DNA of 32,000 bases from Pyrobaculum calidifontis JCM 11548 (lineage in GTDB: Archaea > Thermoproteota > Thermoprotei > Thermoproteales > Thermoproteaceae), in contig NC_009073.1 of assembly GCF_000015805.1 (NCBI RefSeq), positions 240,001-272,000 on the forward strand, given 5' to 3'. The translations under genes and the position numbers were made by a program. Shown piece after piece: positions 3,988 to 31,584 of this stretch; position 1 is the stretch's first letter, and each line of letters opens with the position of its first letter. Below the pieces are notes generated by a model. That model was not told the origin of the DNA. It saw only the letters and a list, made by a program, of their open reading frames with translations, and made no database searches.

Positions 3988-4081
3988 ACGAACCCTGCGC
4001 CAGACTGCAGTCGACGCAAACCCCCTGGGAGCCGCCTTGACACTACTGCCTATTTTAAATATCTACATCGTTTCAGGGGGC

Positions 4082-4402: not shown

Positions 4403-4454
4403 TATTCCCAGTCCGATAGGAAATAAGAGATATAACGAGACTTATAGTGACTAC

Positions 4455-4673: not shown

Positions 4674-4693
4674 GAACCAACGGTGGTGGGTAC

Positions 4694-6489: not shown

Positions 6490-6566
6490 GCTCCCACGAG
6501 CGACACCAGTATATAAATTGTGCCCCCGTAGAAAGACCCCGATCCCGGGGCTCGGGGGTCAAAAAG

Positions 6567-8102: not shown

Positions 8103-8203
8103 ATACTCCCTATTTCCCTATCTTTTATACATTTCTAATCGTGTTGAATCAAGGCCGATGTTGAGGAAGGATAACTGTTATAAATTCGGCCATGTTGGTA
8201 TAC

Positions 8204-12902: not shown

Positions 12903-13445
12903 ATGGAATTGGCAATAGAGAGGCCGCTTCCAAAGCCCACGTCTGCCGACTACGCCTCTGCCCGCCTTCTTGAGGCGCTTGTGGAGGCTAGGCTAGCTCT
13001 CGACTTCCTCAGACGCGGCCTTACTCGCAACGCGGCTGGAAAGGCCTTCCAGGCATGGAAGGCTGTGCTCGCCGCTTTGCTCAAGCTTGAGCTTGAGAGG
13101 CTCAAGGCCTTAGCCAAGGCCGAAGAGGAGAAGAGGTGGCTAGAGGAGAGGGCGGTGGCAAGAGTGCCCACCACGAAGATGCTGTCTCTCTCCCAGCTGT
13201 TGAAGGAGGTGGGGTATCGGGAAGTGCCTGCGTGGACGAGCTTGGCGCTGGACCTACACGACTATCAGTACCACGGGCCAGATCCGGATATGGCCCTTAG
13301 CAAATATCGCACGAGGGAGGAGGCGGCCTACTTCATTAGGAGCCTTGTAGAAGTGGTGGCTGAGTACGCCGAGAGGCTGAAGAGTCGCGTCGCGTGGACT
13401 AAGGAGCACGAGGAGGCCTACAAGGCGCTGGTGGGGGAACTGTAG
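12903..13445 (+). CDS. PaREP1 family protein, copy 1 (180 aa)
   Basis: MELAIERPLPKPTSADYASARLLEALVEA...LTRNAAGKAFQAW. I recognise this helical repeat-gene family as the archaeal PaREP1/PaREP8 family. Two further paralogues lie downstream. Confidence 0.75.
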   Translation: MELAIERPLPKPTSADYASARLLEALVEARLALDFLRRGLTRNAAGKAFQAWKAVLAALLKLELERLKALAKAEEEKRWLEERAVARVPTTKMLSLSQLLKEVGYREVPAWTSLALDLHDYQYHGPDPDMALSKYRTREEAAYFIRSLVEVVAEYAERLKSRVAWTKEHEEAYKALVGEL

Positions 13446-14656: not shown

Positions 14657-15199
14657 ATGGAACTGGCAATTGAGCGCCCACTTCCAAAGCCCACGTCGGC
14701 TGACTACGCCTCAGCCCGTCTTCTTGAGGCGTTGGTGGAGGCCAAATTGGCATTGGAGTTCCTGCGCCGAGGTCTCACCCGCAATGCCGCGGGTAAAGCC
14801 TTCCAGGCGTGGAGAGCCATCTTAGCGGCGCTCCTAAAGCTAGAGCTGGACAAACTCAAGGCCATAGCCAAGACGGAAGAGGAGCGGCGCTGGCTAGAAG
14901 AAAGAGCAGTGCCCAGCGTCCCTACGACGAAGATGATACCCCTCTCGCAGATGTTGAAAGAGCTGGGCTACCAAGATGTCGTGTTTATAACGAGCCACGC
15001 CTTAAGCATCCACGGGTATCAATACCACGGGCCAGATCCAGACATGGCCCTCAGCATTTATCGTACGCGGGAAGAGGCTGCCTTAGCCATTAGGGAGTTG
15101 GCCAAGGCAGTGGCACAGTATGCAGAGACGTTGAAAAACCGCGTCACGTGGACAGAGGAACACGAGAGAGCCTACGCGGCACTAGTGGAAGAACTCTAG
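14657..15199 (+). CDS. PaREP1 family protein, copy 2 (180 aa)
   Basis: Collinear with copy 1 over its whole length. tatttaac box at 14630 lies 27 nt upstream. Confidence 0.75.
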   Translation: MELAIERPLPKPTSADYASARLLEALVEAKLALEFLRRGLTRNAAGKAFQAWRAILAALLKLELDKLKAIAKTEEERRWLEERAVPSVPTTKMIPLSQMLKELGYQDVVFITSHALSIHGYQYHGPDPDMALSIYRTREEAALAIRELAKAVAQYAETLKNRVTWTEEHERAYAALVEEL

Positions 15200-15880: not shown

Positions 15881-16750
15881 TTAAAAGCTTGTCGGCGTAA
15901 TTTCCTGCTCCACGGCCACGTCGCGAGCCAGCGGCACGTCTAAGACGAGCCTCAGCGCGTAGGCCGGGCCAGGCCCCAGCCCCGCGACGCCGTTTCTAAA
16001 GAGGTCGAGGGCCTCGTCCCTCGGAGTGCCGGCTATTATCACCACCTTGGGCCCTGCGAGTCCGCGGAGGTCTACCACCTCGCGGACTGCGCCGCCCCGG
16101 CTCTCGGCGAGCTTCATCTTGTGAGTCTTCTCGGGGGTCTTAGCCACTAGCTCCAGCCTCGCGGCCCTAGCCTTGACAAGCCAAGCTTCCACCACGGCCT
16201 CCACCTGGCCGGGCCCCACAGGTCTCACAACGGCGCGGGCGTAGTCGCCCTGAGGCGTGGAAATGAACAGCTCCCCCGACGCAGACTTAGCCATGGCGGG
16301 GTCCAACACGGCGAGCATAAAGCCTCTGTAGGGCCCCTCCTCCACTCTACACCCCGCCGCCCTGCCGTAGATCCAGTCAACGAACGCCACAAGGGCGTAT
16401 TCGCCCGGCTTAGGCAAGCCTCTAACCACGCCGCCCGTGGGAGTAAAACGCGCCCAGCCCCGGGAGCTCCTCCCCCCGCTTAAGTAGAAGAACTCCACAT
16501 AGCCCAGCGCACAGTTGGCAGACTCCCAGCCGCGGGACTGGACAAAGCGTGCGGCCCGGCGCCACTTCCACAAACCCCACCCAAACAACGGGCCCACTAT
16601 GAGCGTCATGATGGCCACGGCGAGGAGACCGCCTTTGGCGAAGCCGACTAGCACCACCACCAGTAAGACCAAGAGCGCGTACCAAGGCCGCGTACCCCCT
16701 ATCACCACCACGTCCACTCCCACGGTCACGCCACCCTTTAAAAAGTTCAC
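15881..16750 (-). CDS. Membrane protein, paralogue B (2 predicted N-terminal TM helices plus a ~200-aa soluble domain)
   Basis: Shares GCRVEEGPYRG, GDYARAxVRPxGPG, VEAWLVKARAARLEL, LAESRGG and GVAGLGxGPxYxLRLVLD blocks with the upstream gene. Only a 6-nt gap separates it from that gene. Confidence 0.65.
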   Translation of the reverse strand: MNFLKGGVTVGVDVVVIGGTRPWYALLVLLVVVLVGFAKGGLLAVAIMTLIVGPLFGWGLWKWRRAARFVQSRGWESANCALGYVEFFYLSGGRSSRGWARFTPTGGVVRGLPKPGEYALVAFVDWIYGRAAGCRVEEGPYRGFMLAVLDPAMAKSASGELFISTPQGDYARAVVRPVGPGQVEAVVEAWLVKARAARLELVAKTPEKTHKMKLAESRGGAVREVVDLRGLAGPKVVIIAGTPRDEALDLFRNGVAGLGPGPAYALRLVLDVPLARDVAVEQEITPTSF

Positions 16751-16756
16751 CCCAAG

Positions 16757-17653
16757 CTAGGCGTCCAGCCACGGGGGCTGTGGAGTCACCTCTTCCTCTA
16801 CTGTCACGTCCCGAGACGCGGGCATGTCGAGGACGAGTCTGAGCTTGTAGCTGGGGCCCCAGCCAAGCCCCGCCACGCCTTCGGCGGGCAAATCTAGCGA
16901 CCAGGCGTGGGACGTCCCCGCCACCACGACCACCCTGCGCCCGTAGAAGCCTCTAAAATCCACCCTTCTCTCCGCTGTCCCACCTCTGCTCTCGGCTAAT
17001 GTCACTCTGTGCGCTCCCATAGACGTCTCCACCATCAGCTCAAGCCTGGCCGCCCTCGCCTTGACAAGCCAAGCCTCCACCGCCACGTCCGCCAAGCCTG
17101 GCCCCGCGGGTCTCACGGCGGCTCTGGCGTAGTCGCCATGGGGCGCGGAGACGGACAGCCGGGCGGAAAGGGTATAGGCCCTCTCCGGGTCTATCACGCC
17201 CACCACCATCCCCCTGTAGGGCCCCTCTTCCACTCTGCACCCAGGCGCCCTTATGTATATCCACTGCCCCGAGGCCACTACGACGTAGCTCCCCGTCTCG
17301 GGCCACTCATACCTAGGCCCCCCAAGCGGCTCAAAATTCGCCCACAGCGACGAAGCCCTCCCCGAGAGCCCAATTTCGACAAAGCCGGGAGTGCACAACA
17401 GCTTCTCTCTCCACACGGCGAGCCCGAGGCCCCTGGCCCTAGCCCACAGCCGCGCCGCCCTCACCGCGTTGAACAGAACATACGCCAAGACTCCCAGGGC
17501 AATTGCATACGTCACTGGGTGCACAATGGCGAAAAGCACGGCGAGGCCGGGGACGAGGAAGGCAACAGCCAGAAGGGCCTCCCCCGGGTGCTCTACTCCG
17601 ACGATGAAAACCCACTCGTCCACCCACTCACCCTGCTCTGAGTACGCCGTCAT
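16757..17653 (-). CDS. Membrane protein, paralogue A (start taken at ATG 17653, MTAYSEQGEW...)
   Basis: Same conserved blocks as 15881-16750. The ORF-track N-terminal extension to 17773 is Arg/Gly-rich and looks non-coding. Confidence 0.65.
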   Translation of the reverse strand: MTAYSEQGEWVDEWVFIVGVEHPGEALLAVAFLVPGLAVLFAIVHPVTYAIALGVLAYVLFNAVRAARLWARARGLGLAVWREKLLCTPGFVEIGLSGRASSLWANFEPLGGPRYEWPETGSYVVVASGQWIYIRAPGCRVEEGPYRGMVVGVIDPERAYTLSARLSVSAPHGDYARAAVRPAGPGLADVAVEAWLVKARAARLELMVETSMGAHRVTLAESRGGTAERRVDFRGFYGRRVVVVAGTSHAWSLDLPAEGVAGLGWGPSYKLRLVLDMPASRDVTVEEEVTPQPPWLDA

Positions 17654-17875
17654 ATAACGCGGGCCCCCGCCCCCAGCGGCTGGACAAACGCCTCCTCGCA
17701 GGACACCGCTACGGCGGGCCTCCGCGCAACCCCAGCCGCCAAGCCGCCCTGCCACACGCCCGCTCCGGGGCACCGCTCGACGAGTCTGCGAAGTCCACCA
17801 CAGTGCTGCAAAGCCCCTTGCCCAAGAGCCCCTCGTCGACTCACACGAAATAGTGAGAGTTGCGAGTTAAAAGCC

Positions 17876-19037: not shown

Positions 19038-19451
19038 CTACGCCCCCAAACACTTTCCAGCGGCGTCCATCAGCCCCCCACACGGCCCCTCCATTGTACA
19101 CAACACCTCTCCGACGCCCCAAACCGATAAGCGACACTCCCATATACCACGAGCCAGCTCAAACCCCCGCCCGTCGAAATACGCCTCGCACCGACCCCAA
19201 TGAGAAACAGCGCCGTTACCCTCGGCGGAAACACCCGCGCCAGCGGCATCCCGTCGAACACCACCACGTCGATAAACCCTGGCACACACCCTAAGAAGCT
19301 TGGAGGAAATGGCGACGCCCCCCGTCAAAATCCAAATCCTATCCACTTGGTAAATGGGCACCCTCCTCTCGCCGCCGCCCCTCTGCCTAATCACCACCGC
19401 GCCCCTAGAAAAGCCCAGGTAGACCCCCCAGCTCTTAATTACCAGCTCCAT
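19038..19451 (-). pseudogene. cas1: cas1 fragment (N-terminal domain only, at least two frameshifts)
   Basis: MELVIKSWGVYLGFSRGAVVIRQRGGGERRVPIYQVDRIWILTGGVAISSKLLRVCA is Cas1-like. The expected continuation GFIDVVVFDGMPLARVFPPRV is in another frame (ORF 19070-19285). The reading then returns to NGAVSH...EAYFDGRGFELARGI. The C-terminal catalytic domain is absent. Confidence 0.6.
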
Positions 19452-19529
19452 GGCAGTACGCGAAGAAGGGACATGAGTCCGGGCACCTAGGCGCAAGGCC
19501 GGGGTCGCACCTCGACGACACAAGCTCCA

Positions 19530-20286
19530 TCAACGAGCCCCCTCCTCGGAGAACAGCCTCCTCAGCGAGTCGCCAACCACCACCGGCTTAGCCTTAACCA
19601 CGTCGTCAACGTGGACGTACAGCAGAAGCCCCCTCTCCATAGGCATCTCCTCATCCGCCTCCAGGGCCAAGGCGTAGCCAGCCACAGCCAGCTCACGCCG
19701 CGGGCCCCACCTTCACCTCCACCACCACGTCGTAGGCCAAGGCGTCGGACCTCACGTAGGTAAGGCCCAGAGGCCTCCCGTCAACCACGTACTCAGTCCA
19801 CAGGGGAACGGCCCTAGCCGCCAAAGAGTCCCCATCCACGTGAGACCTAGACCTAACCTCGTCCACCCTCGCCGCCACTTGCACCGCCAGCCACCTAGCC
19901 AGCTTCACCCCCCTCACGTCAGGCTCAAACTCCGCCGCGGCCGCCGCATCCTTAGCCACACCCTCAGCGTCAAACGCCTGCAAAAGCTCCCACCCAGACG
20001 CCACACCATCTTCAACAAGCCTACGAAGCCGCTTAAGAGACAGCCTAAACACCTCGTGGATATACGCCCCATACTTCACAGCCCGAGAAGGCCGCCCCTC
20101 GACGCCCCCCACCCTCCTCAAGTACACGTCCCGCCTAGTCTCACACACCCCACCCCCGACCTCCGACACCGACACTCTAACCCCCAGAGGAGGCGGAGCC
20201 ACAGGAGGCGAGTCCCAGCGCCACCCCCTAAGCTCCTCAGACACCTCCACCCGCACCGACTTGAGCCACCTCAACTCCCGAAACAT
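19530..20286 (-). pseudogene. csa1: csa1 (Cas4-like RecB-family nuclease of type I-A adaptation modules), frameshifted
   Basis: MFRELRWLKS...ELRGWRWDSPPV...VCETRRDVYLRRV...DVVVEVKVG stops at 19693. The expected continuation ELAVAGYALALEADEEMPMERGLLLYV...SEEGAR* is open in another frame down to the stop at 19530-19532. ttttatag box lies 26 nt upstream of ATG 20286. Confidence 0.55.
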
Positions 20287-20368
20287 ACCCCCCAGAACGC
20301 CCAACTATAAAACCGTTTGTATATGTATATGTCAAACTTTACAAACATACAAAAATGTGCCAACGGCG

Positions 20369-20541
20369 GAAGAATGGCGCGCTTACAACGGCGTCCGTCT
20401 AAGAGGCCCCCAGAAGAATGGCGTACGACAACGGGGGCAAACGGATATGTGTGTATGTAAAGAGGGGGTCAAAAGCGACGTGCCGTTCCCACAAAAACGA
20501 GGGAAAAACTTATAAACTCACAAGAGCCGCAAACGTGAGCG
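20369..20541 (+). promoter_or_regulatory. CRISPR leader 1 (173 nt) with TATA-like cttataaac at 20509-20517
   Basis: Collinear with 24731-24903. Shared blocks are gaagaatg(g/a)cgcgctt, gaagaatggcg, atatgtgt(gt)atgtaaag, aaagcgacg, gttcccaca, gggaaaaactta, cacaagagccg and acgtgagcg, ending directly before the first repeat. Confidence 0.7.
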
Positions 20542-20704
20542 GAGAATCCCCAATGGGGGTAGAAACTTATACTCCACGATATACGCCTTAATTCCGAGGC
20601 GTTCCAAAAGAGAATCCCCAAAGGGGGTAGAAAGAGGTAGAGCGAGACGGCGGTGGGCGAGTCCACGCCAACGGTCACGGAGAATCCCCAAAGGGGGTAG
20701 AAAG
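20542..20704 (+). CRISPR. CRISPR array 1: 3 repeats (25 nt, GAGAATCCCCAA[A/T]GGGGGTAGAAA[C/G]) and 2 spacers (43 and 45 nt)
   Basis: Repeats at 20542-20566, 20610-20634 and 20680-20704. The repeat has an internal CCCC-N3/4-GGGG stem. Its 3' end GTAGAAAC/G resembles the 8-nt crRNA 5' handle (AUUGAAAG-type). The leader lies on the left side. Confidence 0.9.
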
Positions 20705-20812
20705 GCTTAGACGTAAACAGATGCTGATCTCACCGGTAGCGGAAGTTCTAAGAAGTATATAACGAAGTAGTAAAGCCGTACGGACTTGAAAGCGATAATT
20801 TACAGCTGTACT

Positions 20813-21478
20813 TCATTCGCGTAGACATGTTATAACCTTAGCATCTTGTGTTAGCTCTGCCCTAAGGGGCCTCTTGCTCAGCACTTGGACTAAGCCCAAC
20901 TCCTCTAAGCGCCGTATGTGCCTCCTCACAGTGGAGGAGTCTAGGTTTACCTCCCTTGCCAGCTCCTCCGCCGTCGCCACCCCCCTCTGGGCCAGCTTCT
21001 CCAAGACGGCGAGTTTTTCCTCGCCGAGCCTCTCGGCGAGTTTTTGGGCATACACAGCGCACAGCGGTACTTCCACGAGGTAGGTCCCATCCTCGAACTC
21101 CACCTCCACTCTAACCCTCTTTGCCACGTCGTCGGGGAGGAGCTGGACGGCCGCGTAAGTGGCCAAGACCAGGGCCCTCGGCCCGCCCGAGAGGTTCACC
21201 ACCACGTCCCCGCCGGCTTTTTCAAGGACGCGCCGCCTAATTTCACAGACGGCGCCCGGGAAGTCTCTCACGTTCACTTCGACGAGCTCAATCTCGACGC
21301 CCCCGCCGTAGTACCTTTGGACGAACTCCCGCAGAGTGTTGTACGCCCTTACCACTCTGTCGGCGGCCGGCCTCGCCGCTACGAGGAGGATTCTGTCCCC
21401 CACGTCTAGCCCCCTCCTCGTGAAGGCCCTTATGGCAAACTTTTCCTCAAAGCCGAGGGTAAACACGAGGAGACGCAC
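20813..21478 (-). CDS. csa3: Csa3-type CRISPR-associated transcriptional regulator (CARF domain plus C-terminal wHTH)
   Basis: From the GTG start: RLLVFTLGFEEKFAIRAF...VVNLSGGPRALVLA (CARF), followed by LAVLEKLAQRGVATAEELAREVNLDSSTVRRHIRRLEELGLVQV (wHTH). aaataaat box lies 26 nt upstream of GTG 21478. Confidence 0.8.
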   Translation of the reverse strand: MRLLVFTLGFEEKFAIRAFTRRGLDVGDRILLVAARPAADRVVRAYNTLREFVQRYYGGGVEIELVEVNVRDFPGAVCEIRRRVLEKAGGDVVVNLSGGPRALVLATYAAVQLLPDDVAKRVRVEVEFEDGTYLVEVPLCAVYAQKLAERLGEEKLAVLEKLAQRGVATAEELAREVNLDSSTVRRHIRRLEELGLVQVLSKRPLRAELTQDAKVITCLRE

Positions 21479-21613: not shown

Positions 21614-22171
21614 TCACTGTCTAAGGCATAGGACTCCGCCGCACTCCTCCACCACCTCTGCGCAGAGGTCTCTGAGGGCGCTGCCCAGATCCTTTTTTAC
21701 CAGGGGTAGCTGGAGTAATAGAAGCGACTGGCCGTAGGACAAGGCGTATGTTAATAGGCGGTAGAGCATAGACCCCTGAGGCTCCGAGCCGATATACAGC
21801 GCGTAGAGGCCGTGGGGGAGGGGCTGCCTTGGGACAACGTCGTCGAGGGGCTCCAAGACGTTCTCCCCCAGCGCTATAAACACGGCGCCGAGCCCCGCCA
21901 GCCTACACGCGAGCTCCCTAAACCGCGGCAGAAGAGCCGCGGCCGTCTCCGCCGCCACCCCCAGGTCGTAGAAGCCAGTGCCCAGATAGGCCTCGCAGGG
22001 CAACAGAGAGACGCAAGCCCCACCCCACCTCTCCACCACCACCGCAACTCCCTCGAAGACGCGGACCTCCAACCCCTCCTCAGACGCCTCGCCACACTCC
22101 CCACCGTAAGGCCCCAGCGAAGACAAGAAATTCCCCAACCTCTCCTCATCTTTAAAACAGATGTATATCAT
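21614..22171 (-). CDS. Hypothetical protein (185 aa), third gene of the ATPase cassette
   Basis: ATGA start/stop overlap with the upstream gene (22171-22168). No motif recognised. Confidence 0.55.
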   Translation of the reverse strand: MIYICFKDEERLGNFLSSLGPYGGECGEASEEGLEVRVFEGVAVVVERWGGACVSLLPCEAYLGTGFYDLGVAAETAAALLPRFRELACRLAGLGAVFIALGENVLEPLDDVVPRQPLPHGLYALYIGSEPQGSMLYRLLTYALSYGQSLLLLQLPLVKKDLGSALRDLCAEVVEECGGVLCLRQ

Positions 22172-22683
22172 ATGCCCACCACGAGGACCTCGTTTAGCCC
22201 ATTATCTTTAAGCTTCTTCTTTAGCTCGCTCGTGTTAGTTGCCACCGTCAACAACACCGAAGCATGAGCTCCCCTACCACAACAAGCTTCACTTGCACCG
22301 TTTCCCAGAGTCCTGTAGCGGTTAAATTTCTGAACCAGCCTAGACACTATAGAAGCCACATTTTCGCCGACTCTACATTCGATCCATATACACGCCTTCC
22401 TACCCCTCTTATCCCTTATCAAGAGGAATAAATCGAAACTTTCGCCGATGTACCGCCGTCCACACGGAGGCAAGGCTGGCTCTTTTTGAGGCTTATCGCA
22501 CCGGCATAAGTATACAACCGTATTGGTTGAAATTTTCAATTCTGCCAATCTTTGTTCGAGTAGTTCTAGTATTTGAAGGAGTCTCCCTTTGTTGAGTCCA
22601 CACTCCCTGTCCTCTGGCTCCATGTCGTTGCCCAGTTCACAAGCGTTCTGCTTTTCGCAGTCTACGTCGAGCTTCTGCATCAT
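22168..22683 (-). CDS. Cys-rich hypothetical protein (171 aa from ATG 22683) with a possible PD-(D/E)xK-like nuclease core
   Basis: ATGA overlap with the ATPase stop (22683-20). A helix (LLQILELLEQRLAEL) is followed by GESFDLFLLIRDKRGRKACIWIECRVGE, a D...ExK-like pattern with R in place of K, reminiscent of Hjc/restriction-fold proteins. Ten Cys residues. Markedly A/T-richer DNA than the flanks. Confidence 0.5.
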   Translation of the reverse strand: MMQKLDVDCEKQNACELGNDMEPEDRECGLNKGRLLQILELLEQRLAELKISTNTVVYLCRCDKPQKEPALPPCGRRYIGESFDLFLLIRDKRGRKACIWIECRVGENVASIVSRLVQKFNRYRTLGNGASEACCGRGAHASVLLTVATNTSELKKKLKDNGLNEVLVVGI

Positions 22684-23951
22684 GTCACTTGTTGATATGC
22701 CCAATACTCGCTGCGGAAGAGCTCGATGTCCTTGAGACTCTTCACGTCAAGCATCTTCACTTTTCCGTCTTTTACATAGTAGGCAACGCCATATTTTAGC
22801 GCATAGGCGAGCAGGAGGCCGCTGTGAGTCTCTACGATAACTTGCACGCCGAGGTCCAGGAGGAGTTCCATAAGCCTGTAGAGCCAGTCCACGTGTATGT
22901 TAAACTCAGGCGTATCGATGATTAGCAACGGGGGCGGCGGTTCAATCCCCCACCTTTTCATCTCCTTCAAGCTGTACACCGCAGAATAGGCCTCCGCCAG
23001 GGTGTTCACGACATGTAACATGCCGTCGCTGAGTTGTCTCAGCTTAAACGCGCCGCCGCGAAAAACGAGCTCAACGTCGGCTGCTATCTCTATTATCTCT
23101 TCGCCGCCGTGGGAGGCGGGTTCAACGCTGACGTCGATTGCTATGTCTATTATTTCTTCGCCGAAAACATACCCCAAGTCCTCCTTGAACTTGTCCAAGG
23201 CGCGGACCCCGTACTTCGCCAGCCCAGCCACGCTCTGCCTAACAGCGCCCAGCGTTGCCGGCGGGCGCACATGGCGCACGAGGGTCTCGGCCATGTATTG
23301 CAGAGGCCTCCAGCCAAACTCCTCGTAGACGCCCTCATCCACCTTTACATGTTTAACTACGGCGTCCCGTAGCCAGCTCAGGGCGTGTCTGCGCCTTTCA
23401 ATCCTCACACTCTCGCTTATTTCGCCGCCTGCCCCGCTGTGCTCATACACCTCGACCTCGAAGGGGCCGCACTCCCTCAGCACGTCGCCCAGCAACCCCC
23501 CACTTCTCACCGCCTCGCGCGAGAAGAGGGAGCCCTCGGCGACGTAGGGGGCGAAGGAGATGGAGATTTTCCTATCGCCGCACTTCACGTACGTGGAGCC
23601 CTCGAAGAACTCGGCCACGAGGGGCCCGACGCGGAACCACCTGCGCCTAGTTACGCGGTAGTCGTCCACCTCGGCGCCGTACTCCACTTCCACGTAGCCG
23701 CCGGGCACCCACACCAGGCCCGCCACCCTGAGAGTCCTTGCCGAATAGTTCACCTCCTGGGGACAGGCGGTCCGCACGCCGTAGACGTAGTGGAGGAGCC
23801 TCTGCAACGCACACAAGATGCTGGACTTGCCAGACGCGTTAGGCCCATAGAGGACCGTCAAGCCGGACAGCTCAAGCTCCACCTCGCCCTCCACCCTCTT
23901 AAAGCCCTGTACCACAAGCCTTTTGACAAGCTGTACGGCGCTAGCGGACAT
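22680..23951 (-). CDS. ABC/SMC-type (AAA_15/AAA_21-like) ATPase; start uncertain (ATG 23951 preferred, ORF open to 24110)
   Basis: LVVQGFKRV...VLYGPNASGKSS (Walker A near the N-terminus), a long insertion, QLSDGMLHV (signature), LLIIDTPEFNIH (Walker B/D-loop), VETHS (H-loop). This architecture is typical of ATPases in two-gene defence systems. Confidence 0.75.
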   Translation of the reverse strand: MSASAVQLVKRLVVQGFKRVEGEVELELSGLTVLYGPNASGKSSILCALQRLLHYVYGVRTACPQEVNYSARTLRVAGLVWVPGGYVEVEYGAEVDDYRVTRRRWFRVGPLVAEFFEGSTYVKCGDRKISISFAPYVAEGSLFSREAVRSGGLLGDVLRECGPFEVEVYEHSGAGGEISESVRIERRRHALSWLRDAVVKHVKVDEGVYEEFGWRPLQYMAETLVRHVRPPATLGAVRQSVAGLAKYGVRALDKFKEDLGYVFGEEIIDIAIDVSVEPASHGGEEIIEIAADVELVFRGGAFKLRQLSDGMLHVVNTLAEAYSAVYSLKEMKRWGIEPPPPLLIIDTPEFNIHVDWLYRLMELLLDLGVQVIVETHSGLLLAYALKYGVAYYVKDGKVKMLDVKSLKDIELFRSEYWAYQQVT

Positions 23952-24437
23952 GATCCCACCCGCCGAGCGCCGCCTTGACCCCCCTCTTGCACTCAGCCGC
24001 GCTATTACACGCAACACTCGTGCACACCATAGCTCCTCAATCCAGAGACCTTTTAAGCTTACACACGCAAGAATCCGTCCCCAAGCCGAAATCTCTGCGC
24101 CGTTTCCCATCCCGCCGGGTTAGATACGCCTTTAATCTGCTGGCGCGCATTTCCAAAAGCGGGATTCAAAGACTGTACAATAATGAACATCGAATTGTTC
24201 AATCGACACGGCGCGTTACGCCGTAGTGCGCCGTCTGGCCACTGGCGGCTGTAAAGTCCGAGGAAGACGTGTGTTTCAGCGACCCCACTCATTTCCACCT
24301 TATCTTGTTTTAAGCCGTCGTCTACTATACGGTGGCATGCGTCTGTGCTTCTGCCCGAGGAAGTTGGCTAACCTCTTTGGAGAGAGAAGAGATTGAACAG
24401 TAGCGACATCATCTTATATCTCTTGGGAAAACTCATT

Positions 24438-24510
24438 GGGGGAGGGGATGATGAGAGGCTTGGCAAGGGGTACCTGCCTGAATCCAGGCTCGCTGACCCT
24501 CCCCTCCCCC
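24438..24510 (+). ncRNA. Candidate C/D-box-like sRNA flanked by an 11-bp terminal inverted repeat
   Basis: GGGGGAGGGGA (24438-24448) pairs perfectly with TCCCCTCCCCC (24500-24510). C box AUGAUGA is at 24448-24454. It is followed by 12 nt, a degenerate D' (GGGG), 3 nt and a C'-like UGCCUGA. Then come an 11-nt guide AUCCAGGCUCG and the D box CUGA at 24493-24496. TATA-like tcttatat at 24412 lies 26 nt upstream of 24438. No ORF covers the region. Confidence 0.4.
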
Positions 24511-24730
24511 TCTCCACGTAGACTATTGTGCATCTAGATAAACTTTTCTCCGCAGACCCAATACCCTACTTGTATCGACTTGAACATCCGCGAGTTGGCA
24601 GTCGCCCTGGCTACTGTGCGCTGATTTAAGTTACGGCAATCCCCTTAAGCCTTTACTCCTCTTCCCCTTTTGCCCATAGCCTCCAATGCGCGCACATATC
24701 CTGCGCTACTAGCCGATCCGCCTCTCGCGC

Positions 24731-24903
24731 GAAGAATGACGCGCTTTTCACGGCATCTACGATAGTGGCGTCGAGAAGAATGGCGGGCCACAACGCGGGA
24801 CTGCGGGCATATGTGTATGTAAAGCGGGGGCTGAAAGCGACGCACTGTTCCCACACTCACAAGGGAAAAACTTAAAAAACCACAAGAGCCGAGGACGTGA
24901 GCG
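24731..24903 (+). promoter_or_regulatory. CRISPR leader 2 (173 nt) with TATA-like cttaaaaaac at 24871-24880
   Basis: Same length and block structure as leader 1. It ends in acgtgagcg directly before the first repeat. Confidence 0.7.
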
Positions 24904-25257
24904 GAGAATCCCCAAAGGGGGTAGAAACAGCTTGACGTACCAGAACAGTACCTCAAAATCTCTTAGGTCCCGGAGAATCCCCAAAGGGGGTAGAAACACG
25001 AATTCGACGATTTTTTGTTCAATGTCCATGTCAAACTGAGAGAGAATCCCCAATGGGGGTAGAAAGCAACTTTCTTCTACCCCGGGTAAGCGAGATGTAT
25101 ATGTAAAGCCAGAGAATCCACAATGGGGGTAGAAACTTGATCTTCCTTGCTATAAGGGAGTTGAGCTCGCCCTCTTGAGGGAGAATCTCCAATGGGGGTG
25201 ACAAAATTCGCTTTTCCTCTCTTCTGTTAAACGGAGAATTTCCAGAGGAGTGGAAAC
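24904..25257 (+). CRISPR. CRISPR array 2: 6 repeats and 5 spacers (44, 44, 45, 44, 28 nt); distal repeats degenerate
   Basis: Repeats at 24904-24928, 24973-24997, 25042-25066 and 25112-25136 (one mismatch). Further repeats at 25181-25205 (gagaatctccaatgggggtgacaaa) and 25234-25257 (gagaatttccagaggagtggaaac). Decay away from the leader supports plus-strand orientation. Confidence 0.9.
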
Positions 25258-25322: not shown

Positions 25323-26602
25323 TTAAATGTAGTTTTTGACCACTTCGTGGTTTAGTATTTGGTCTATGTCGATGGTGTAGGCCAGCGTGGGGCCTCTCTC
25401 TCCTGGGCATATTTTCACCGCGGCGTCTAGGAGGCCGGCGTGCGCGGCGAAGTTCCGTATGTCGCGCTCGGTGATTTGCCCCCTTTGCAACCTCTCTGCC
25501 TCTTCCACTTTTCTGGGCCTACGTTTTTGAAGGCGTAGTACGGCGCGCAGTAGGCCGGTCTCTTTGTCAACAGCTTGTTCAACGCGGCGAGCTCTTCGTT
25601 TACCAGGGTCTCGTAGAGGGGGGATAACTTCCTGAAGTAGTCGCCCCTCATCTCGGTGACGACGTTGCTCCAACCAGCCTTGCACACCTCCCAGGCGAGC
25701 AACATCCCGTAGACCACCTCGGGGGGCTCTACGGCGGGCTTTTCCACTGCGCACTCCTCCGCCGCGCGTATTTTTACGCCTTGGACAAACCTCTCGACGA
25801 CTTCCTCCGCCTTTGGCGGCTCTGCCTCTCTGCAGGCGTAGTAGACGGCGAGGGGCGCTGCCAGGGCGAGGGCCCTTAGTACTTTGCCCGAGGCCCCGCC
25901 GGTTGCCCTGGCCGCGGCGAGGTCTATCCTCCTCACGTTGGCCTGGTACACCCTGGCCACCTCGTACTCGCCGCCGGCCGCCTCCACGGCGTTGAAGGTC
26001 TGGACCTTCGCCTCAGCCGCGCCCCTCGCCACAGCGAGCGAGGCCAGCATGTGGACGAGCTCGTACGCCAGCGTGGTGGCGTAGTTCACGCCGTGCGTCG
26101 TGTCTAAGTATATCTCGCTGGGCGCCTCGCCTCCGAGGAGGGCGTACAGCTCTGCCAGAGAGATGGAGAGGAAGGCCCTGGGGTCTCTCAACACGTGTCT
26201 ACACATCCCAAGCCTCCCCACCGCCGGCGCCACCACCACGTCCACCTCCCCGCCCCCAGACGCCTCGGCGACACATTTGACGTAGTTCACAACTGCCCTC
26301 CTCCACTCGCGGTAGTCCTCTGCCGCGGGGAAGATCTCCACGTCGCCGCCCCGCTCCCGCACCGACAGCCCCGCCTCTCTTGCGCAGTTCAGCGCGTCCT
26401 CGTTCACGAGGGCGCGAGGGGCCGCCGCCGCGGCGGCGCTGTCCAGGGCTATTACCACGACTCTGTCCACAACCCCCCTGTAGCAGGGCAAGTCGGTGAA
26501 GGTCTGGCCCTCTGGGCAGTTAAGCGGCGGGACGCCGGTGTACCTGGCCCTCCTCCACGTCAGCGGGCTCCCCCACGTGGCCACCAAGAGCCTCACGGGC
26601 AC
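25323..26602 (-). pseudogene. csx1: csx1 (CARF-HEPN ancillary RNase) interrupted by a frameshift near 25500-25530
   Basis: The 391-aa frame shows MPVRLLVATWGSPLTWRRARY...YLDTTHGVNYATTLAYELV, Csx1-like (compare P. furiosus Csx1 as I recall it: KLLVVSWG..., STHGLNY). The HEPN motif ERDIRNFAAHAGLLDAAV (RNxxAH) lies only in the overlapping ORF 25323-25754, in a different frame. Confidence 0.7.
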
Positions 26603-27426
26603 AGCAGACTGCCATAGCCCCTCTCCCTGTGCAACCCCGCCGAGGGGGCCGGCTCTCTGAGCCTAAGGGCCGTGCCCTGGGGCAACGCTTGGTATATGGC
26701 CCTCCTCCGCCTCAAGCTGAGGCTGTAGCCAAGGCCCACATACGTCGACTTGACCTTCGCCCTGCCGCCCTCCAACACGCCGTAGACCTCCTCCACGTTT
26801 TCAAGCCCCGATTTTTCAACTCCTGCGCTTTTCCCCACCTCTGCGTAGGGCCAATCGGCGTAGAAGAGCAGCGGCGAGAGGAGCACCCCCTCTCTACACG
26901 GCTTGGGGGCCACTTTGTCGTCGTCTTGCACTTCTACCACGGCCACTCTCCCCTCGCCTCCCACCCATTCCACGCCGCCTTTCAGCCCCTCGCAGTCGGC
27001 GTAGTATAGGTAGGCCACCTCTCTCGCCCCCTCGACCCACAGGTACTTGGCGTAGTAGAGGTTTTGCACAACCTTGTCCCTAAGGCGGACCCCCGGCCTC
27101 TCCAGCTCCACTACCTCGTACCTCGCCCTGGGGGGCTCCCCCTCGCCCTTGGCGGCCGCGATGTACCTTCCCGCCTCTTCCACTGGGTAGAGGGAGGACG
27201 CGGCTTGGAAGTAGAGGCGCCCGTCCACTTCCACTAGGGGGCCCCAGAGCTGTCTGCAGAGCTGGAAGGGGTCTCCCCCGCGCACCCCCGCCAGGGAGGC
27301 CAACACCCCTATGGCCGTGCTGGGCATGATGGTCGCATACACCGCGTCTGCGCCTATGTCGTCTACGCCGCTGACCTGCTTAGCGCCGACGTGGATGGGC
27401 TCCAAAAGCCTAATTTTGACGATCAT
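26593..27426 (-). CDS. cmr3: Cmr3 (type III-B RAMP subunit)
   Basis: ATGA overlap with cas10. MIVKIRLLEPIHVGA...IMPSTAIGVLASLAG matches the Cmr3 P-x-PST-x-G pattern. Position after cmr2 also fits. Confidence 0.7.
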   Translation of the reverse strand: MIVKIRLLEPIHVGAKQVSGVDDIGADAVYATIMPSTAIGVLASLAGVRGGDPFQLCRQLWGPLVEVDGRLYFQAASSLYPVEEAGRYIAAAKGEGEPPRARYEVVELERPGVRLRDKVVQNLYYAKYLWVEGAREVAYLYYADCEGLKGGVEWVGGEGRVAVVEVQDDDKVAPKPCREGVLLSPLLFYADWPYAEVGKSAGVEKSGLENVEEVYGVLEGGRAKVKSTYVGLGYSLSLRRRRAIYQALPQGTALRLREPAPSAGLHRERGYGSLLCP

Positions 27427-30230
27427 GGCAACCTCCTGAGTATCTTCATGGCCTCTTTCAGCCCCTCGCCTGCCTCTGCGCCGTATTTCTCAATGAAGCA
27501 GAGGAGGCGGGTTAGAGTCTCGGGGGAGAGCTCCCTGGCGTTTCTCTTTAGGGCGTAGCGCCACGCCTTTAAATACGCGGCTAAGTCCCTCTTCAGATCC
27601 TCGTAGGCGTCGAGGTCGTGGGGCGCGTTCTTGCTGAGGCGCCCAAGGGCCATGAGGAGCCAGAGCTCCTTCAGCCTCTCCACGGCCTCTCTGGGCCGCC
27701 TAAAGGGGAGGACCGCCTTTGCCTCAACCCTCGAGCTGGTGATCGTAAGGGAGTCTTTTTCAAAGCAGTCCCACCTGCCCCCTTTGGCCAAGTGCTCTAG
27801 GTCGTGGTAGGACTTCCCAAGCTCCTCAGACATTAGGTCCATTAGGTGGACGAAGCGCACCGCCGTGCTTCTCCCATACGCCGCCAGGGCTGGCACGGGG
27901 TAGTTGTCCACAATGTGGAAGCCCCCTTCTCCCCAGTAGTTCTCTCTGTACTCCGCGGCGGCGTCTAGCGCAGTCTCCACGGGCAACAGCGCCACTACGT
28001 CGTCGCCGCCGGCGTATATCAACAGGCCGCGGTGCTTCTCCGTGGTGGCCAAGTCCTTCAGCGAGGTGAGCACCATGGCGCGGTTCACCGCCACGCGGTA
28101 GGTGGGGGTAATCACCACGGGGGGCGGCACGCCGAAGGAGCGCATGTGCTCTTCTACGGCGCGGAGCACCTCCAGCGCCTTCTCGCGGCCCTCCGCCCCC
28201 ACGCCTTCCACCACCTCCGCCACCGCCCCATACCAGTTGACCGGGAGGTGGCCCTCCAGCAACTTCCCAACGCTGTCCCCGTCCGCCCTCACCACCGCGT
28301 AGAAGAGCCTGGGGCCCGCGAACTCCTCAACAGCCTTCCCCACGTCCCCCTCTACGCCAAAGATCTCTCTCACGAGTCTCTCTACCCCCCGGAGCCTGCC
28401 GAATTTTTTAAAGCAGTTGTCCCAGTCCCGTCTCATGGCCTCTGGGTTTCCCCAAATGACCTCAAGGTCTCTGCCCCCCGTTGTCCTCAAATAGTTGACC
28501 ACCTTAACACACTCCTGTACTCTATCTAACTCTGCATAGTGTTGCTCGTGACTCTCAGCCAGCTTTACCACTGCCACGTCCTCTGTGCTTTCAAATTTTA
28601 TGAGCTCCCGGTCGGCGGCTCTGAGGTATATCAGCCTCTTGGCCAAGCACACTGGGCCTAGGTACTCGCCGGGCCGCAACACTTTGCGCAAGTGGTTCTT
28701 CAGTCTACTCACTTCTATCCCCACTTCTGCAGATATCCGCCTCAAGTCCTCCTCGTTGTAGTCCTCCCTCCCCTCCCTCGCCACCTTCCTCACTCCGACG
28801 ACGGCGGGCTCAGAGCCGCAGAGACTACAGACCCTCCAGTTTGGGTCTAGTGGGAAGTTGAAGTGGGGGTTGAGGTCGTCGTATCCGCCCGGCTTAAACC
28901 AGGGGCCTCGCGTGGGGATGAACCTGCGCCTCTGGGGTTCCACGAGCTTTGTCCCCTCCCTCCCCCCTCTCAATACGGCGTCGAAGAGGAAGAGGATTTT
29001 GCAGCGCTCCTCGCCGTCCCCCAACGCCTCTTCTATGGCCTTCGCCACCTCCCTTGGACACTTTATGCTGTCATACACAGCGCCGACGTCCACCACCTCC
29101 ACTCTCAGCGGGAGCCTAAGCTCTGCGTACTTCTGCAACCATGCCGCAATTTTTTCCACCTCGCCTCCGCCTCTTCCCTCTCCGCGCCCCTCCTCTACCA
29201 CTTTGAAGAAGTCTTCGCAGTACTCATCCCCCGCGCCCCGTTGCCCCTTTGCGAAATGGGTTAGACACTCGACGGCCCTCTTGAACCTGTCTCGGACAGC
29301 CTCTCTCACCTCCTCGGCCCCGCCCCAGCTGGCAATTTTGTCCCCCTCGACGCGGTACGGCGGCAGGACAATCTGGGCCCTCTCCCCAATCAGCGGCTGG
29401 ACAACGGCAAAGTTGACCAAGTCGTAAAACGACTCTCCTTTGACGTAGGGGGACAGCAATTTGGCAAAGACGCCGTGTTCCACCCCCAGCCCCCGGGCGG
29501 CGGCGAAGGCGTAGTAGTAGGGGTTGAGCCTCGCCGTGGGCCTCAGGAGCACGTCGGGGCCGTACTCCCAGGCAAAGGGCCACACGGTGAGCCACACCGC
29601 CATGGACAAGGCCCAGCTACCTGCCCAAATGTCGCCGGCCTTTCTCCCAGCCTTGACGAAGTCTTGCACCCCCGGCACGTCTAAGGTGACGAAGTAGCCG
29701 GAGGGCTTGCCCCCGGCGAGGAGCCAGTTGGCCACCATGGCCGTCGCGTACAAGTGGTCAAACACGTCGTGGGTGGGGGCCCTCGGGTCTGCGAGGCTTG
29801 GCCCAAGCCCCTCGTCAATCCACAGGGCCTCGAATAGGGCGTAGAGGACGTGGTACGCCTCTCTAGGCCCCTTAGCCGCCCTCACTCGGCCGCCCAGATT
29901 CTCGACGTACTCGGCGACTTTCCCCGGGTCCGGCGGCGCGAGGGCGCGCCACAGGCGTGGGTTGAAGAGGTTGTGGAGCTTGTCGTACTTCACGCCCTCC
30001 CCGCCCCCCGAGTAGAAGGCGTATCTGTCCATGGAGGCGGCCATGCGGTCCGCCAGCTTGACCACCTCCCTCGCCCACTCCGGCAGTTCGCCGTCTAGCG
30101 GGCTCCCGCGGCGCACCTTGTTGAACATGTCCCAGGCCCGCTCCTCGTGGCCCTTTAGCCCCCACATTTTGTCGGGCGGGTCGTGGAAGAGGGCGTACGC
30201 CTTTGTCAAAAAGAACTCGCGCAAGTCCAT
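27423..30230 (-). CDS. cas10: Cas10/Cmr2 large subunit, type III-B
   Basis: 935 aa. N-terminal YALFHDPPDK...HEERA (Cmr2-type HD region), FYAVVRADGDSVGKLL (palm 1), a CSLCG...C zinc-finger-like cluster, and LIYAGGDDVVALLP (GGDD cyclase motif). Confidence 0.9.
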   Translation of the reverse strand: MDLREFFLTKAYALFHDPPDKMWGLKGHEERAWDMFNKVRRGSPLDGELPEWAREVVKLADRMAASMDRYAFYSGGGEGVKYDKLHNLFNPRLWRALAPPDPGKVAEYVENLGGRVRAAKGPREAYHVLYALFEALWIDEGLGPSLADPRAPTHDVFDHLYATAMVANWLLAGGKPSGYFVTLDVPGVQDFVKAGRKAGDIWAGSWALSMAVWLTVWPFAWEYGPDVLLRPTARLNPYYYAFAAARGLGVEHGVFAKLLSPYVKGESFYDLVNFAVVQPLIGERAQIVLPPYRVEGDKIASWGGAEEVREAVRDRFKRAVECLTHFAKGQRGAGDEYCEDFFKVVEEGRGEGRGGGEVEKIAAWLQKYAELRLPLRVEVVDVGAVYDSIKCPREVAKAIEEALGDGEERCKILFLFDAVLRGGREGTKLVEPQRRRFIPTRGPWFKPGGYDDLNPHFNFPLDPNWRVCSLCGSEPAVVGVRKVAREGREDYNEEDLRRISAEVGIEVSRLKNHLRKVLRPGEYLGPVCLAKRLIYLRAADRELIKFESTEDVAVVKLAESHEQHYAELDRVQECVKVVNYLRTTGGRDLEVIWGNPEAMRRDWDNCFKKFGRLRGVERLVREIFGVEGDVGKAVEEFAGPRLFYAVVRADGDSVGKLLEGHLPVNWYGAVAEVVEGVGAEGREKALEVLRAVEEHMRSFGVPPPVVITPTYRVAVNRAMVLTSLKDLATTEKHRGLLIYAGGDDVVALLPVETALDAAAEYRENYWGEGGFHIVDNYPVPALAAYGRSTAVRFVHLMDLMSEELGKSYHDLEHLAKGGRWDCFEKDSLTITSSRVEAKAVLPFRRPREAVERLKELWLLMALGRLSKNAPHDLDAYEDLKRDLAAYLKAWRYALKRNARELSPETLTRLLCFIEKYGAEAGEGLKEAMKILRRLP

Positions 30231-30241
30231 ACACTGGAAAA

Positions 30242-30256
30242 ATTAAAATATTAAAT
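30242..30256. promoter_or_regulatory. Overlapping opposite-strand TATA boxes in the 38-bp cas10/cmr4 intergenic region
   Basis: ATTAAAATATTAAAT. On the plus strand attaaaat (30242) is 27 nt from ATG 30269. On the minus strand atttaata (30256) is 26 nt from ATG 30230. Confidence 0.55.
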
Positions 30257-30268
30257 CTTTTACAGTCT

Positions 30269-31171
30269 ATGGACAGAGTTAGCAGGGGGCTCCTCATATA
30301 CGCCGTCACGCCGCTGCACGTGGGCGTGGGGAGGGCCGAGGGGGCCCACGTCGACCTCCCAGTGCAGCGAGACGAGTTCGGCCTGCCCACCATATGGGCG
30401 TCGTCGCTTAAGGGCAGCTTGAAGAGCCACGCGAGGAGCCGCTCGCCCAACGACGCCAAGCTCGTCTTCGGCCCCGACCCAGACGGGGGGCCTCCCGACC
30501 ACGCCTCCGGCGCCGCCCTGTTAGACGCCAGGCTTTTGGCCATCCCGGCCCGCTCCGTGAGGGGGGTATGGGCCTACGTGACCTCTCCCCACATGTTGCG
30601 GACCTTTGTAACCTACGCCGAGGCCCTCGGCGCGTTTCAGCCCCTTGCCGAAAAGGCCTGCGCCCTGCTTCAAGCTACTGCGGGCTTGAGCGAGGGGAGG
30701 GCCGCGGTGTCGGACCACGCGCTCCTCCACGGGGGACGGCTCTTTCTGAACGAGGTGGAGCTCCAGGCGGAGGTGAAGAGGGAGGTGGGGGACTTCATAG
30801 AGGAGTTAGACAAGGCGCTGGGGGGAGATCTCCCGAAGAAGGCCCTGGCCGTGGTCAGCGACGACGTTGCTAAAGAGGTGGTGAACAGGTCCACGCTTGT
30901 CCAATACAGAGTGAGGCTGGACAGCGCTAGGAAGACAGTGGTAGAAGGCGCGCTGTGGAGCGAGGAGTACGTGCCCCAGTTCACCGTCTTCGCCTCAGGG
31001 GTGGTTTGTAGGCCCGTGGCGCTCAAAGACGCGACGATAAAGGCGGAGGAGATATGTGAAAAGTTTACAAAGCTGTTGACGAATGGGCAGGGGAACAAGG
31101 CCAACGTGTGGGTCGGGGGTAAGGAGACGATTGGGAAAGGGCTCATCTCGGTGTACATATGGACGAGGTAG
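30269..31171 (+). CDS. cmr4: Cmr4 (type III-B backbone RAMP/target RNase subunit)
   Basis: MDRVSRGLLIYAVTPLHVGVGRAEGAHVDLPVQRDEFGLPTIWASSLKGSLKS...LLDARLLAIPARSVRGVWAYVTSP is a classic Cmr4 pattern. The ORF-track start at 30203 overlaps cas10 and is rejected. Confidence 0.8.
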   Translation: MDRVSRGLLIYAVTPLHVGVGRAEGAHVDLPVQRDEFGLPTIWASSLKGSLKSHARSRSPNDAKLVFGPDPDGGPPDHASGAALLDARLLAIPARSVRGVWAYVTSPHMLRTFVTYAEALGAFQPLAEKACALLQATAGLSEGRAAVSDHALLHGGRLFLNEVELQAEVKREVGDFIEELDKALGGDLPKKALAVVSDDVAKEVVNRSTLVQYRVRLDSARKTVVEGALWSEEYVPQFTVFASGVVCRPVALKDATIKAEEICEKFTKLLTNGQGNKANVWVGGKETIGKGLISVYIWTR

Positions 31172-31584
31172 AGGTGGCAATTGAGTGCACCAAGGCGGTG
31201 GCCGAGGCGGCCGACGGCGACGTGAGGAGGAGGTACGCCCAGCGGTGCCGCGCGTTCCACGCCGAGATCTTCACCCTCGGGGTGGCCCACGTAGTGGCGC
31301 TAGCCGCGGCGCGGGCTGGCGCCAAGGCGGTGGAGGCGGGGCTTAGGCATTCCACCTGCGGCGAGGTGGTCAAGGCCGCGCTGGCGGAGGCCGGGGGCCC
31401 CGAGGAGAAGTCCTACGGCCTCTACGGCGCGGTACTGCTCTACGCGATGAGGAGGAGGGGCTATGTGAAGTCCACAACGCTCCTAGACGCGTTAGGCGAG
31501 CTGAAGGACCCCGCGCTAAACGCCGCGGCGTACCGAGCCGCCGAGTGGCTAAAGAGGCTTGCCGAGGCCTACTTTAAGGCATGA
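31159..31584 (+). CDS. cmr5: Cmr5 (type III-B small subunit)
   Basis: A 141-aa all-helical Ala-rich protein between cmr4 and a RAMP gene, overlapping both neighbours. Confidence 0.65.
   Translation: MDEVEVAIECTKAVAEAADGDVRRRYAQRCRAFHAEIFTLGVAHVVALAAARAGAKAVEAGLRHSTCGEVVKAALAEAGGPEEKSYGLYGAVLLYAMRRRGYVKSTTLLDALGELKDPALNAAAYRAAEWLKRLAEAYFKA

Follow-up and report, generated by a model that had tools for sequence, protein, structure and literature searches.

We have analyzed a three-gene cassette in the archaeon Pyrobaculum calidifontis JCM 11548 (assembly GCF_000015805.1, contig NC_009073.1), situated at positions 21614 to 23951 of a 32,000-nucleotide (nt) stretch of the forward strand (contig positions 240,001 to 272,000), which we refer to as the window and within which coordinates are given. 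The cassette couples an ATPase of the OLD/PtuA/AriA clade to two small cysteine-rich proteins, and this trio is kept within the cmr operons of distant Thermoproteota. It is thus very probably an accessory module of type III-B (Cmr) CRISPR systems, a reading that is well supported because the trio is embedded in cmr operons across lineages. The best overall explanation, and the one we lean towards, is that it is a Cmr accessory operon of the Cas_RecF/RFas kind that acts as an ATP-gated nuclease effector. The three genes, which we refer to as g1, g2 and g3, are as follows:

22680-23951, minus strand: g1, an ATP-binding cassette (ABC)-type ATPase (OLD/PtuA/AriA-like, AAA_21/AAA_15) of 423 residues from the ATG at 23951.
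22168-22683, minus strand: g2, a 171-residue cysteine-rich protein with D84...E102-C-R104; candidate PD-(D/E)xK nuclease subunit and a hypervariable allele.
21614-22171, minus strand: g3, a 185-residue protein of unassigned fold, conserved in the trio as its third subunit.

Relatives of these genes were found by protein search and by scans with an alignment of the ATPase, giving the loci designated below by L and a number, which are contigs from genome and metagenome collections. The initial annotation had proposed that the genes form a single operon of three coupled minus-strand genes, and both the open reading frames (ORFs) and the ATGA overlaps on which this was based were verified, with coding-strand ATGA at 22683-22680 (g1/g2) and at 22171-22168 (g2/g3); the coupling is kept in relatives L002 and L003, which also have 4-nt overlaps at both junctions. 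Alternative in-frame starts for g1 are open upstream, a TTG at 24014 (444 residues) and an ATG at 24110 (476 residues), and the 444-residue form is the product called in Logan assemblies. Comparison with metagenomic relatives shows purifying selection on all three genes, with ratios of nonsynonymous to synonymous substitution rates (dN/dS) of 0.10-0.28 (0.10-0.13 for g3 and 0.24 for g2), and g1 to g3 are therefore real genes.

A search of 5.8 billion proteins yields three homologues of g2 and two of g3, every one from a hot-spring metagenome and with the gene order kept. Two distant homologues of g1, at 30% identity, each lie inside a type III-B locus and are followed by two small unannotated ORFs. 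The relationships of the small proteins are recognizable by BLASTP to their counterparts in L004 and L005, with E-values of 1e-13 and 2e-12 for g2 and of 3e-23 and 6e-7 for g3. With hidden Markov models (HMMs), ORFs resembling g2 and g3 are recovered immediately downstream of the ATPase in L004, L005, L009, L014, L036 and L037, and g2-like ORFs also in L032; the assignment is by ORF order and alignments for the trio of L031, for the second trio of L036, and for the third ORFs in both L036 and L032. The trio recurs in approximately eight divergent Thermoproteota lineages, and the arrangements include the following:

L009: cmr2-3-4-5-1-6, trio, RAMP gene.
L014 and L037 (Desulfurococcales metagenome-assembled genome (MAG) type): cmr2-cmr3, trio, cmr4-5-1-6.
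L036: cmr4-5-1-6, two tandem trios, CRISPR, csx1, APE2256, cas6.
L004 and L005: RAMP genes, trio, and cas10 at some distance downstream.

In every lineage with usable flanks the trio is co-directional with the cmr operon and lies inside or abutting it, and none was found elsewhere. The initial annotation had offered a CRISPR-ancillary role as one of two options, and homologous trios inside the cmr operons of several distant lineages bear this option out; a lack of conserved linkage had been named as grounds for abandoning it, and linkage of the homologues both to each other and to cmr loci was found. Searches of viral contigs, phage records and plasmids turned up no trio.

Two further observations concern the distribution of the trio. 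In L036 two full tandem trios occupy positions 3478-8195, after cmr6 and before the CRISPR array, with ATPases of 335 and 324 residues that each precede a g2-like and a g3-like ORF, in agreement with a published remark on 'multiple divergent copies'. The search of 5.8 billion proteins did not recover the exact sequences of g2 and g3, although the same locus is present in Logan assemblies ERR9765783 and SRR4028147.

The product of g1 matches Pfam families AAA_21 (63.9 bits, E = 3.5e-17, cut-off 27), AAA_15 (41 bits, E = 2.4e-10, cut-off 32.1) and AAA_23 (31.4 bits, cut-off 27), with an N-terminal SMC_N/RecF match of 25.4 bits that is under its cut-off of 40. No NCBIfam model comes near its cut-off, that for recF (E = 9.8e-5) being far under. 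The nearest solved structures in a search of the PDB with the family profile are PtuA (6.8e-11), OLD (7.3e-10) and AriA (2.3e-05), and g1 can be aligned to PtuA across both lobes. These matches agree with the initial assignment of g1 as an ABC-type ATPase, whose motifs occur in the expected order: Walker A GPNASGKSS at residues 36-44, signature QLSDGM at 306-311, Walker B LLIIDTPE at 342-349, and H-loop ETHS at 374-377. The best PADLOC models are AriA at the top, followed by NsnB, HEC-01A, mad3, AbiLi, Old, GajA and PtuA, none of which is a full-length system match.

No catalytic Glu directly follows the Walker B Asp in g1, where Thr347 (window positions ~22911-22913) aligns with the Walker B catalytic Glu of PtuA (Gln in PtuA mutant entries). 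The ATPase subfamily (P0006-P0040, of which P0006 is 100% identical to g1) is recorded as having no acidic residue at this position, the residues listed being T, A, I, N, V, G, S, K, E or W, and it keeps an E/D at +3 and an H-V-D-W/L motif; generic AAA_21 matches keep D-E or E-E. Because the usual Walker B catalytic Glu is missing, we infer that g1 is an ATP-binding switch with weak or unusual hydrolysis, probably slow or absent. The subfamily is small; a search of 1.84 billion proteins yields 11 representative clusters at E<=1e-30, or 36 when the threshold is relaxed to E<=1e-10, and the 30 clusters looked up are all metagenomic or from MAGs except for one that has a cultured member, from Thermocladium modestius, annotated as a 'Rad50/SbcC-type AAA' protein. 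Shorter ATPases of ~300-335 residues are encoded in the related loci L014 and L036, and a relative of this size also occurs in Thermocladium modestius. The g1 gene also carries an in-frame tandem duplication at 23074-23163 (33-nt units 57 nt apart, 88% identical) that encodes GEEIIDIA.../GEEIIEIA... just before the ABC signature, and which is present in the window and in L002 and not in L007 or P0008.

The second protein, g2, was initially proposed to contain a restriction-fold core. Its ten cysteines (5.8% of residues) and the segments FDLFLL (83-88) and IWIECRV (99-105) were found in the translation, as were all of the other motif placements of the initial annotation. Alignment A7, of 12 divergent members of the g2 family with a mean column identity of 28%, shows no variation at C60, C74 or D84 (12/12 for D84) and almost none at C28 and D63. 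An (E/D)-x-(K/R) triplet follows D84 by 14-18 residues in ten of the twelve; the motif begins with (F/P)D, and several members have literally PD...E-L/C-K. An AlphaFold2 model of g2 (mean predicted local distance difference test (pLDDT) score 52.3) has the secondary-structure order α-β-β-β-α-β, with helix 32-45, strands 56-60, 82-91 and 96-104, and helix 109-126, and in this low-confidence model D84 is in strand 2 and E102 in strand 3, as in PD-(D/E)xK enzymes. Weak Pfam matches occur in two members of the family, to PDDEXK_13 in one (E = 0.21, 11.3 bits, cut-off 27) and to PDDEXK_9 in another (E = 0.019). The D...ExK part of the initial proposal therefore stands, the motif being conserved within a family of 28% identity, but the fold is unconfirmed at a pLDDT of 52 and with these Pfam E-values. 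The nuclease assignment is plausible and unproven, because it combines a conserved motif and a low-confidence topology with no significant match, and that g2 is an active nuclease, of candidate PD-(D/E)xK type, is a proposition that we rate at slightly below even.

Proteins of the g2 family are 5.8-9.7% cysteine and those of the g3 family 1.8-4.5%, versus a background of 0.63% in the other proteins of the window, and this high content suggests metal sites or disulfides in both. Neither g2, g3 nor their homologues have a transmembrane or hydrophobic N-terminal segment, the maximum 19-residue Kyte-Doolittle mean being 0.84-1.85 and always internal. No HNH, Toprim or helicase domain was found in g2 or g3 with Pfam, no RRM family was detected in either, and sequence and profile searches of the PDB with the two proteins returned chance matches only. 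A relationship of g2 to Cas4/Csa1 was considered and rejected, since hhalign shows no relation.

Homologues of g3 always come right after a g2 homologue, and the family has conserved elements that include an N-terminal M-x-Y-I-C-F strand, C...SL-x-PC, and EP and LP motifs. The possibility that g2 and g3 are paralogues was rejected (hhalign probability 0.5%), as was that of g3 being a CARF-like sensor, there being no relation to Csx1 or Cas_APE2256 profiles.

The evolution of g2 differs from that of its neighbors. The initial annotation had pointed to G+C counts of 23/60 at 22501-22560 and 45/60 at 26401-26460, both of which are identical on recount, and had suggested that g2 and the 3' part of g1 are A/T-rich and of foreign origin. 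The G+C content at third codon positions (GC3) is 0.53 for g2 versus 0.70-0.84 for the other neighbors tested, so the A/T-richness holds for g2, but GC3 is reduced only slightly in the 3' half of g1 (0.69) and is unremarkable in g3 (0.75). All of the g2 alleles examined have low GC3 (0.42-0.57), with g1 and g3 at 0.74-0.79; because it is common to all of the alleles, low GC3 is a property of the g2 family and not a sign of recent import. Recent foreign import of g2 into this genome is therefore unsupported, and the proposed foreign origin could apply at most to g2.

Against contigs L001 and L007, the synonymous divergence (dS) is ~1.2 for g2, 0.37 for g1 and 0.30-0.32 for g3. L007 shares the synteny of the window including csa3, and its nucleotide identity to the window drops from 83-94% over g1, g3 and csa3 to 62-70% exactly over 22658-22159, and then recovers. 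The dS values and the sharply bounded drop in identity show g2 to be an ancient hypervariable allele, exchanged inside a conserved operon. We rejected rapid positive selection on this gene, since a dN/dS of 0.24 with a dS of 1.2 points to ancient allele replacement.

The initial annotation regarded the cassette as a candidate new module, and here it was overtaken by the literature, in which two catalogues from one and the same group already describe the kind. Vestergaard et al. 2014 (PMC3973734) reported Cas_RecF and RFas accessory genes of crenarchaeal type III systems, and Shah et al. 2019 (PMC6546367) list Cas_RecF as cluster 17 (~330 residues) with cas_RFas clusters 83, 84, 108 and 211. 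Examples in these papers include P186_0873/0874, VMUT_1481/1493, TTX_1229, Pcal_0278 and Pars_1112, and the RFas examples of the later paper (VMUT_1493, TTX_1229, Pcal_0278 and Pars_1112) are without database matches and of undescribed function. The cassette has a RecF/SMC-type ABC domain, adjoining small unmatched proteins and a type III location, which are the characters of Cas_RecF/RFas. In both, the ABC/SMC-type ATPase is always immediately adjoined by small (~160-180 residue) unmatched proteins that are diverse and functionally uncharacterized, and the genes lie within or beside type III modules of crenarchaea, those of type III-B in Pyrobaculum (P186_0873/4, Pcal_0278, Pars_1112) among them. 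There are also differences. The ATPase in the window has 423 residues rather than ~330, although forms of ~300-335 residues occur in L014 and L036 as noted above; the N-terminal transmembrane signal reported for RFas cluster 108 (the Pcal_0278 type, ~180 residues) is missing from g2 and g3; and the partners in the trio are two unrelated families in fixed order, one of them with a PD-(D/E)xK-like motif that is unreported in the papers. Matched to the published clusters by description, the cassette is probably of the same kind. Later surveys of type III accessory proteins (PMC11229360; bioRxiv 10.1101/270033) do not mention the module.

Several characterized systems resemble the cassette in part. 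Nearest to it in working principle are PtuA-PtuB and AriA-AriB, in both of which an ABC ATPase holds a nuclease and regulates it. The Septu and retron PtuA-PtuB systems provide the solved structure nearest to g1, PtuA, a same-clade ABC ATPase whose gene adjoins that of a small nuclease under its regulation, but the partner is an HNH nuclease, the system has two genes and no CRISPR linkage, and PtuA keeps the Walker B Asp-Glu pair that g1 does not. PARIS AriA-AriB and OLD/Gabija GajA likewise have an AAA_15/AAA_21 ATPase paired with or fused to a nuclease, but this is of the Toprim type, there is no g3-like third subunit, and the genes are not embedded in cas operons. PADLOC gives no match for g2 or g3 at E<=1, and thus no PtuB-like, AriB, GajB or AbiLii partner; because these cognate partner proteins are missing, the cassette is not a member of Septu, PARIS, Gabija or AbiL, consistent with the earlier remark that none of the listed anti-phage systems has this partner set. 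The pairing of a Cas ABC ATPase with sRRM (Vestergaard 2014; YN1551_2137/2138, TTX_1256/1257) also places an ABC ATPase, always in the company of a ~150-residue protein, beside crenarchaeal cas cassettes, but, compared by description, the partner there is an RRM-domain protein, a family not detected in g2 or g3.

The cassette lies between two CRISPR arrays, as had been noticed initially; the same repeat is present on both sides and the repeat cores were located. The surrounding features are:

20369-20720, plus strand: leader A (20369 to ~20540) and CRISPR array A, with 3 repeats (cores at 20544, 20612 and 20682).
20813-21466, minus strand: csa3, a CARF-like (Csa3_N) and winged helix-turn-helix regulator (Pfam Csa3_N E = 1.1e-28, HTH_20 and others).
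23952-24730: ORF-free spacer of ~780 bp between g1 and leader B; presumed promoter region, with a TTAAAA element near 24045.
24731-25250, plus strand: leader B (24731 to ~24901) and CRISPR array B, with 5-6 repeats, the last ones degenerate (cores at 24906, 24975, 25044, ~25114 and 25183, and a degenerate copy near 25231).
25326-26602, minus strand: csx1 (CARF and HEPN), frameshifted (Pfam Csx1_CARF E = 1.7e-22).
26593-27426, minus strand: probable cmr3 (BLASTP E = 4.5e-10 to the L014 protein that occupies the cmr3 position there and has no Pfam match of its own).
27423-30230, minus strand: cas10/cmr2 (Pfam Cmr2_N and Cas10 palm2; HD and GGDD motifs ALFHDPPDK and YAGGDD).
30203-31171, plus strand: cmr4.
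31159-31584, plus strand: cmr5-like, named from position and size only.

The type III-B core region, in which Pfam RAMP families were also matched, spans 26593-31584; csx1, the probable cmr3, cas10, cmr4 and the cmr5-like gene are 1.5-8 kb from the cassette, beyond array B, with csx1, cmr3 and cas10 within 1.5-4 kb. The csx1 gene has a frameshift near 25490-25517 that places the HEPN motif RNFAAH out of frame with the CARF domain, and a tblastn match with the L007 Csx1 is split across frames -2 and -1. The L007 orthologue is intact and 94-95% identical, and csx1 in the window is either a pseudogene or the result of a sequencing error. Confirmation of the frameshift leaves csa3 as the only intact CARF protein of the locus, as the initial annotation had it. 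The csa3 gene shares the strand of g3 and lies downstream of it, ~148 nt of intergenic sequence separating the two, and is called as 217 residues in L058. Its linkage to the cassette is limited to close relatives of the window (L007, L058/59) and is missing from the distant trios, and the earlier suggestion that csa3 and cyclic oligoadenylate (cOA) control the cassette, which draws solely on this adjacency, is pure speculation.

The spacer 23952-24730 has ~79% nucleotide identity to L007 and no consistent reading frame or coding signal, and it matches no Rfam family; within the cassette neither RNA families nor bacterial-type promoter or terminator signals were found above chance. No mobile-element genes flank the trio in the window. 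The CRISPR leaders are duplicated, positions 20369-20566 and 24731-24928 (198 nt) being 78% identical and each preceding a short array, and the 4.36-kb unit between the leaders holds csa3 and the cassette, which looks as though one array had been split or a leader and its array had been duplicated together. At 19038-20304 (minus strand) the type I-A adaptation genes are decayed, with csa1 interrupted (a 203-residue ORF of a 292-residue protein, called as 193 and 46 residues in L058) and cas1 reduced to a fragment of ~150-160 residues. Two ORFs of 289 and 338 residues adjoining cas6 at 15881-17773 (minus strand) have no Pfam family and may be divergent cas genes, and two PaREP1-family paralogues, a sign of a Pyrobaculum/Thermoproteus-type genome, are present at 12903-13445 and 14657-15199 (plus strand).

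If the cassette is an ATP-gated nuclease effector, then g1 would bind ATP and form a dimer or oligomer that serves as a scaffold or switch, and this scaffold would hold g2 as a metal- or disulfide-stabilized nuclease of the PD-(D/E)xK type, with g3 as an adaptor or sensor subunit. The complex would act alongside the Cmr effector as an extra nucleic-acid-degrading arm of interference, and, by analogy with PtuA-PtuB and AriA-AriB, might be released or activated once Cmr engages its target. A more specific version, which we consider rather unlikely as a whole, is that of a cOA-independent type III-B effector arm, in which a hydrolysis-impaired g1 docks on Cmr and licenses a hypervariable metal-cluster PD-(D/E)xK nuclease upon target-RNA binding. 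In this version g3 would be the coupling subunit and g2 would persist as exchangeable alleles of ancient divergence, with evasion of viral inhibitors as one possible reason, and the docking of g1 on Cmr would account for the position of the genes between cmr3 and cmr4.

Several observations weigh against an ATP-gated nuclease effector of the Cas_RecF/RFas kind. In the clade of the window the motif reads E102-C-R104, with Arg replacing the motif Lys, and it is SCR in one member of the g2 family and ECT in another. No significant nuclease match to g2 was obtained in profile, PDB sequence or fold searches (Pfam, NCBIfam, PADLOC), and g3 has no family in Pfam, NCBIfam or PADLOC and no match in any search. 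The AlphaFold2 models of both were built on shallow alignments and are poor (pLDDT 52-53), and Foldseek searches of the PDB with them gave no match at E<=0.001. The trio was found to have neither CARF nor SAVED nor any other known domain for signal sensing, and its likeness to the published Cas_RecF/RFas clusters is judged from their descriptions. Finally, the trio of the window is outside of the cmr operon with a CRISPR array intervening, and the locus is decaying, with csx1 frameshifted, csa1 interrupted and cas1 a fragment.

Some of these same points favor what we regard as the main rival, in which the trio are non-nucleolytic Cmr auxiliaries, an ABC protein that binds ATP and two metal-binding adaptors for the assembly, loading, recycling or regulation of Cmr-crRNA (CRISPR RNA), and the D...ExK-like motif of g2 is a structural or metal site. 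The location of the trio between cmr3 and cmr4 in L014 and L037 resembles that of a core subunit, and an ATPase without the canonical catalytic Glu, the extreme cysteine content of its partners, the Arg at the motif Lys and the lack of a significant nuclease match would all fit such proteins. We nonetheless consider this unlikely, because the motif Asp and the acidic residue are conserved, their spacing and predicted positions within strands being those usual for PD-(D/E)xK, and because most type III-B systems work without such subunits. Moreover, ATPases of the OLD/PtuA/AriA clade are characteristically paired with nucleases (PtuAB, AriAB, GajA).

A little less likely still is an autonomous anti-virus role for the trio, as an ATPase-nuclease system that resembles Septu, PARIS or AbiL and merely shares a defense island with CRISPR-Cas while working independently of it. 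All lineages with enough flanking sequence have the trio co-directional within or abutting the cmr operon, PADLOC finds none of the partner proteins of the named systems for g2 or g3, and the trio is absent from the viral contigs, phage records and plasmids searched, even though the best PADLOC matches of g1 are to components of such systems (AriA, NsnB, HEC-01A, mad3, AbiLi, Old, GajA and PtuA), the cassette in the window has its own upstream region with an array between it and the cmr genes, and g2 is hypervariable, as arms-race components often are.

A toxin-antitoxin or addiction module, selfishly stabilizing the CRISPR locus or hitch-hiking with it, is very improbable. It is suggested by the 'putative AbiEii toxin' label of Pfam AAA_21, by the atypical composition and allelic replacement of g2, and by the position in a decaying cas region, but the AbiEii label of AAA_21 is generic and represents no functional test, all three genes are under purifying selection and have been conserved vertically for long periods inside cmr operons across orders, and mobile-element genes do not flank the trio in the window. 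A housekeeping RecF/Rad50-like DNA-repair complex placed near CRISPR by chance, as might be read from weak SMC_N, RecF and Rad50 N-terminal similarities and from the 'Rad50/SbcC-type AAA' annotation of one relative, is effectively refuted by the distribution, since those matches are all under the family cut-offs and confined to the P-loop, the ATPase family is tiny and patchy (the 11 clusters at E<=1e-30 noted above), and the trio is always cmr-linked.

Type III systems are noted for ancillary effectors that cOA activates, yet the trio described here has no recognizable sensing domain and is found within the cmr operons of several archaeal lineages. The module was catalogued in 2014/2018 and its function has been uncharacterized since. 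Our analysis adds handles for approaching it, including residues D84, E102 and R104 of g2 and Thr347 of g1, a fixed subunit order, and a set of divergent homologues. If g2 is an ATPase-gated nuclease, then these archaea would have a different way of coupling the type III complex to collateral or targeted destruction of nucleic acids, and the trio would be mechanistically nearer to Septu and PARIS than to Csx1 and Csm6.

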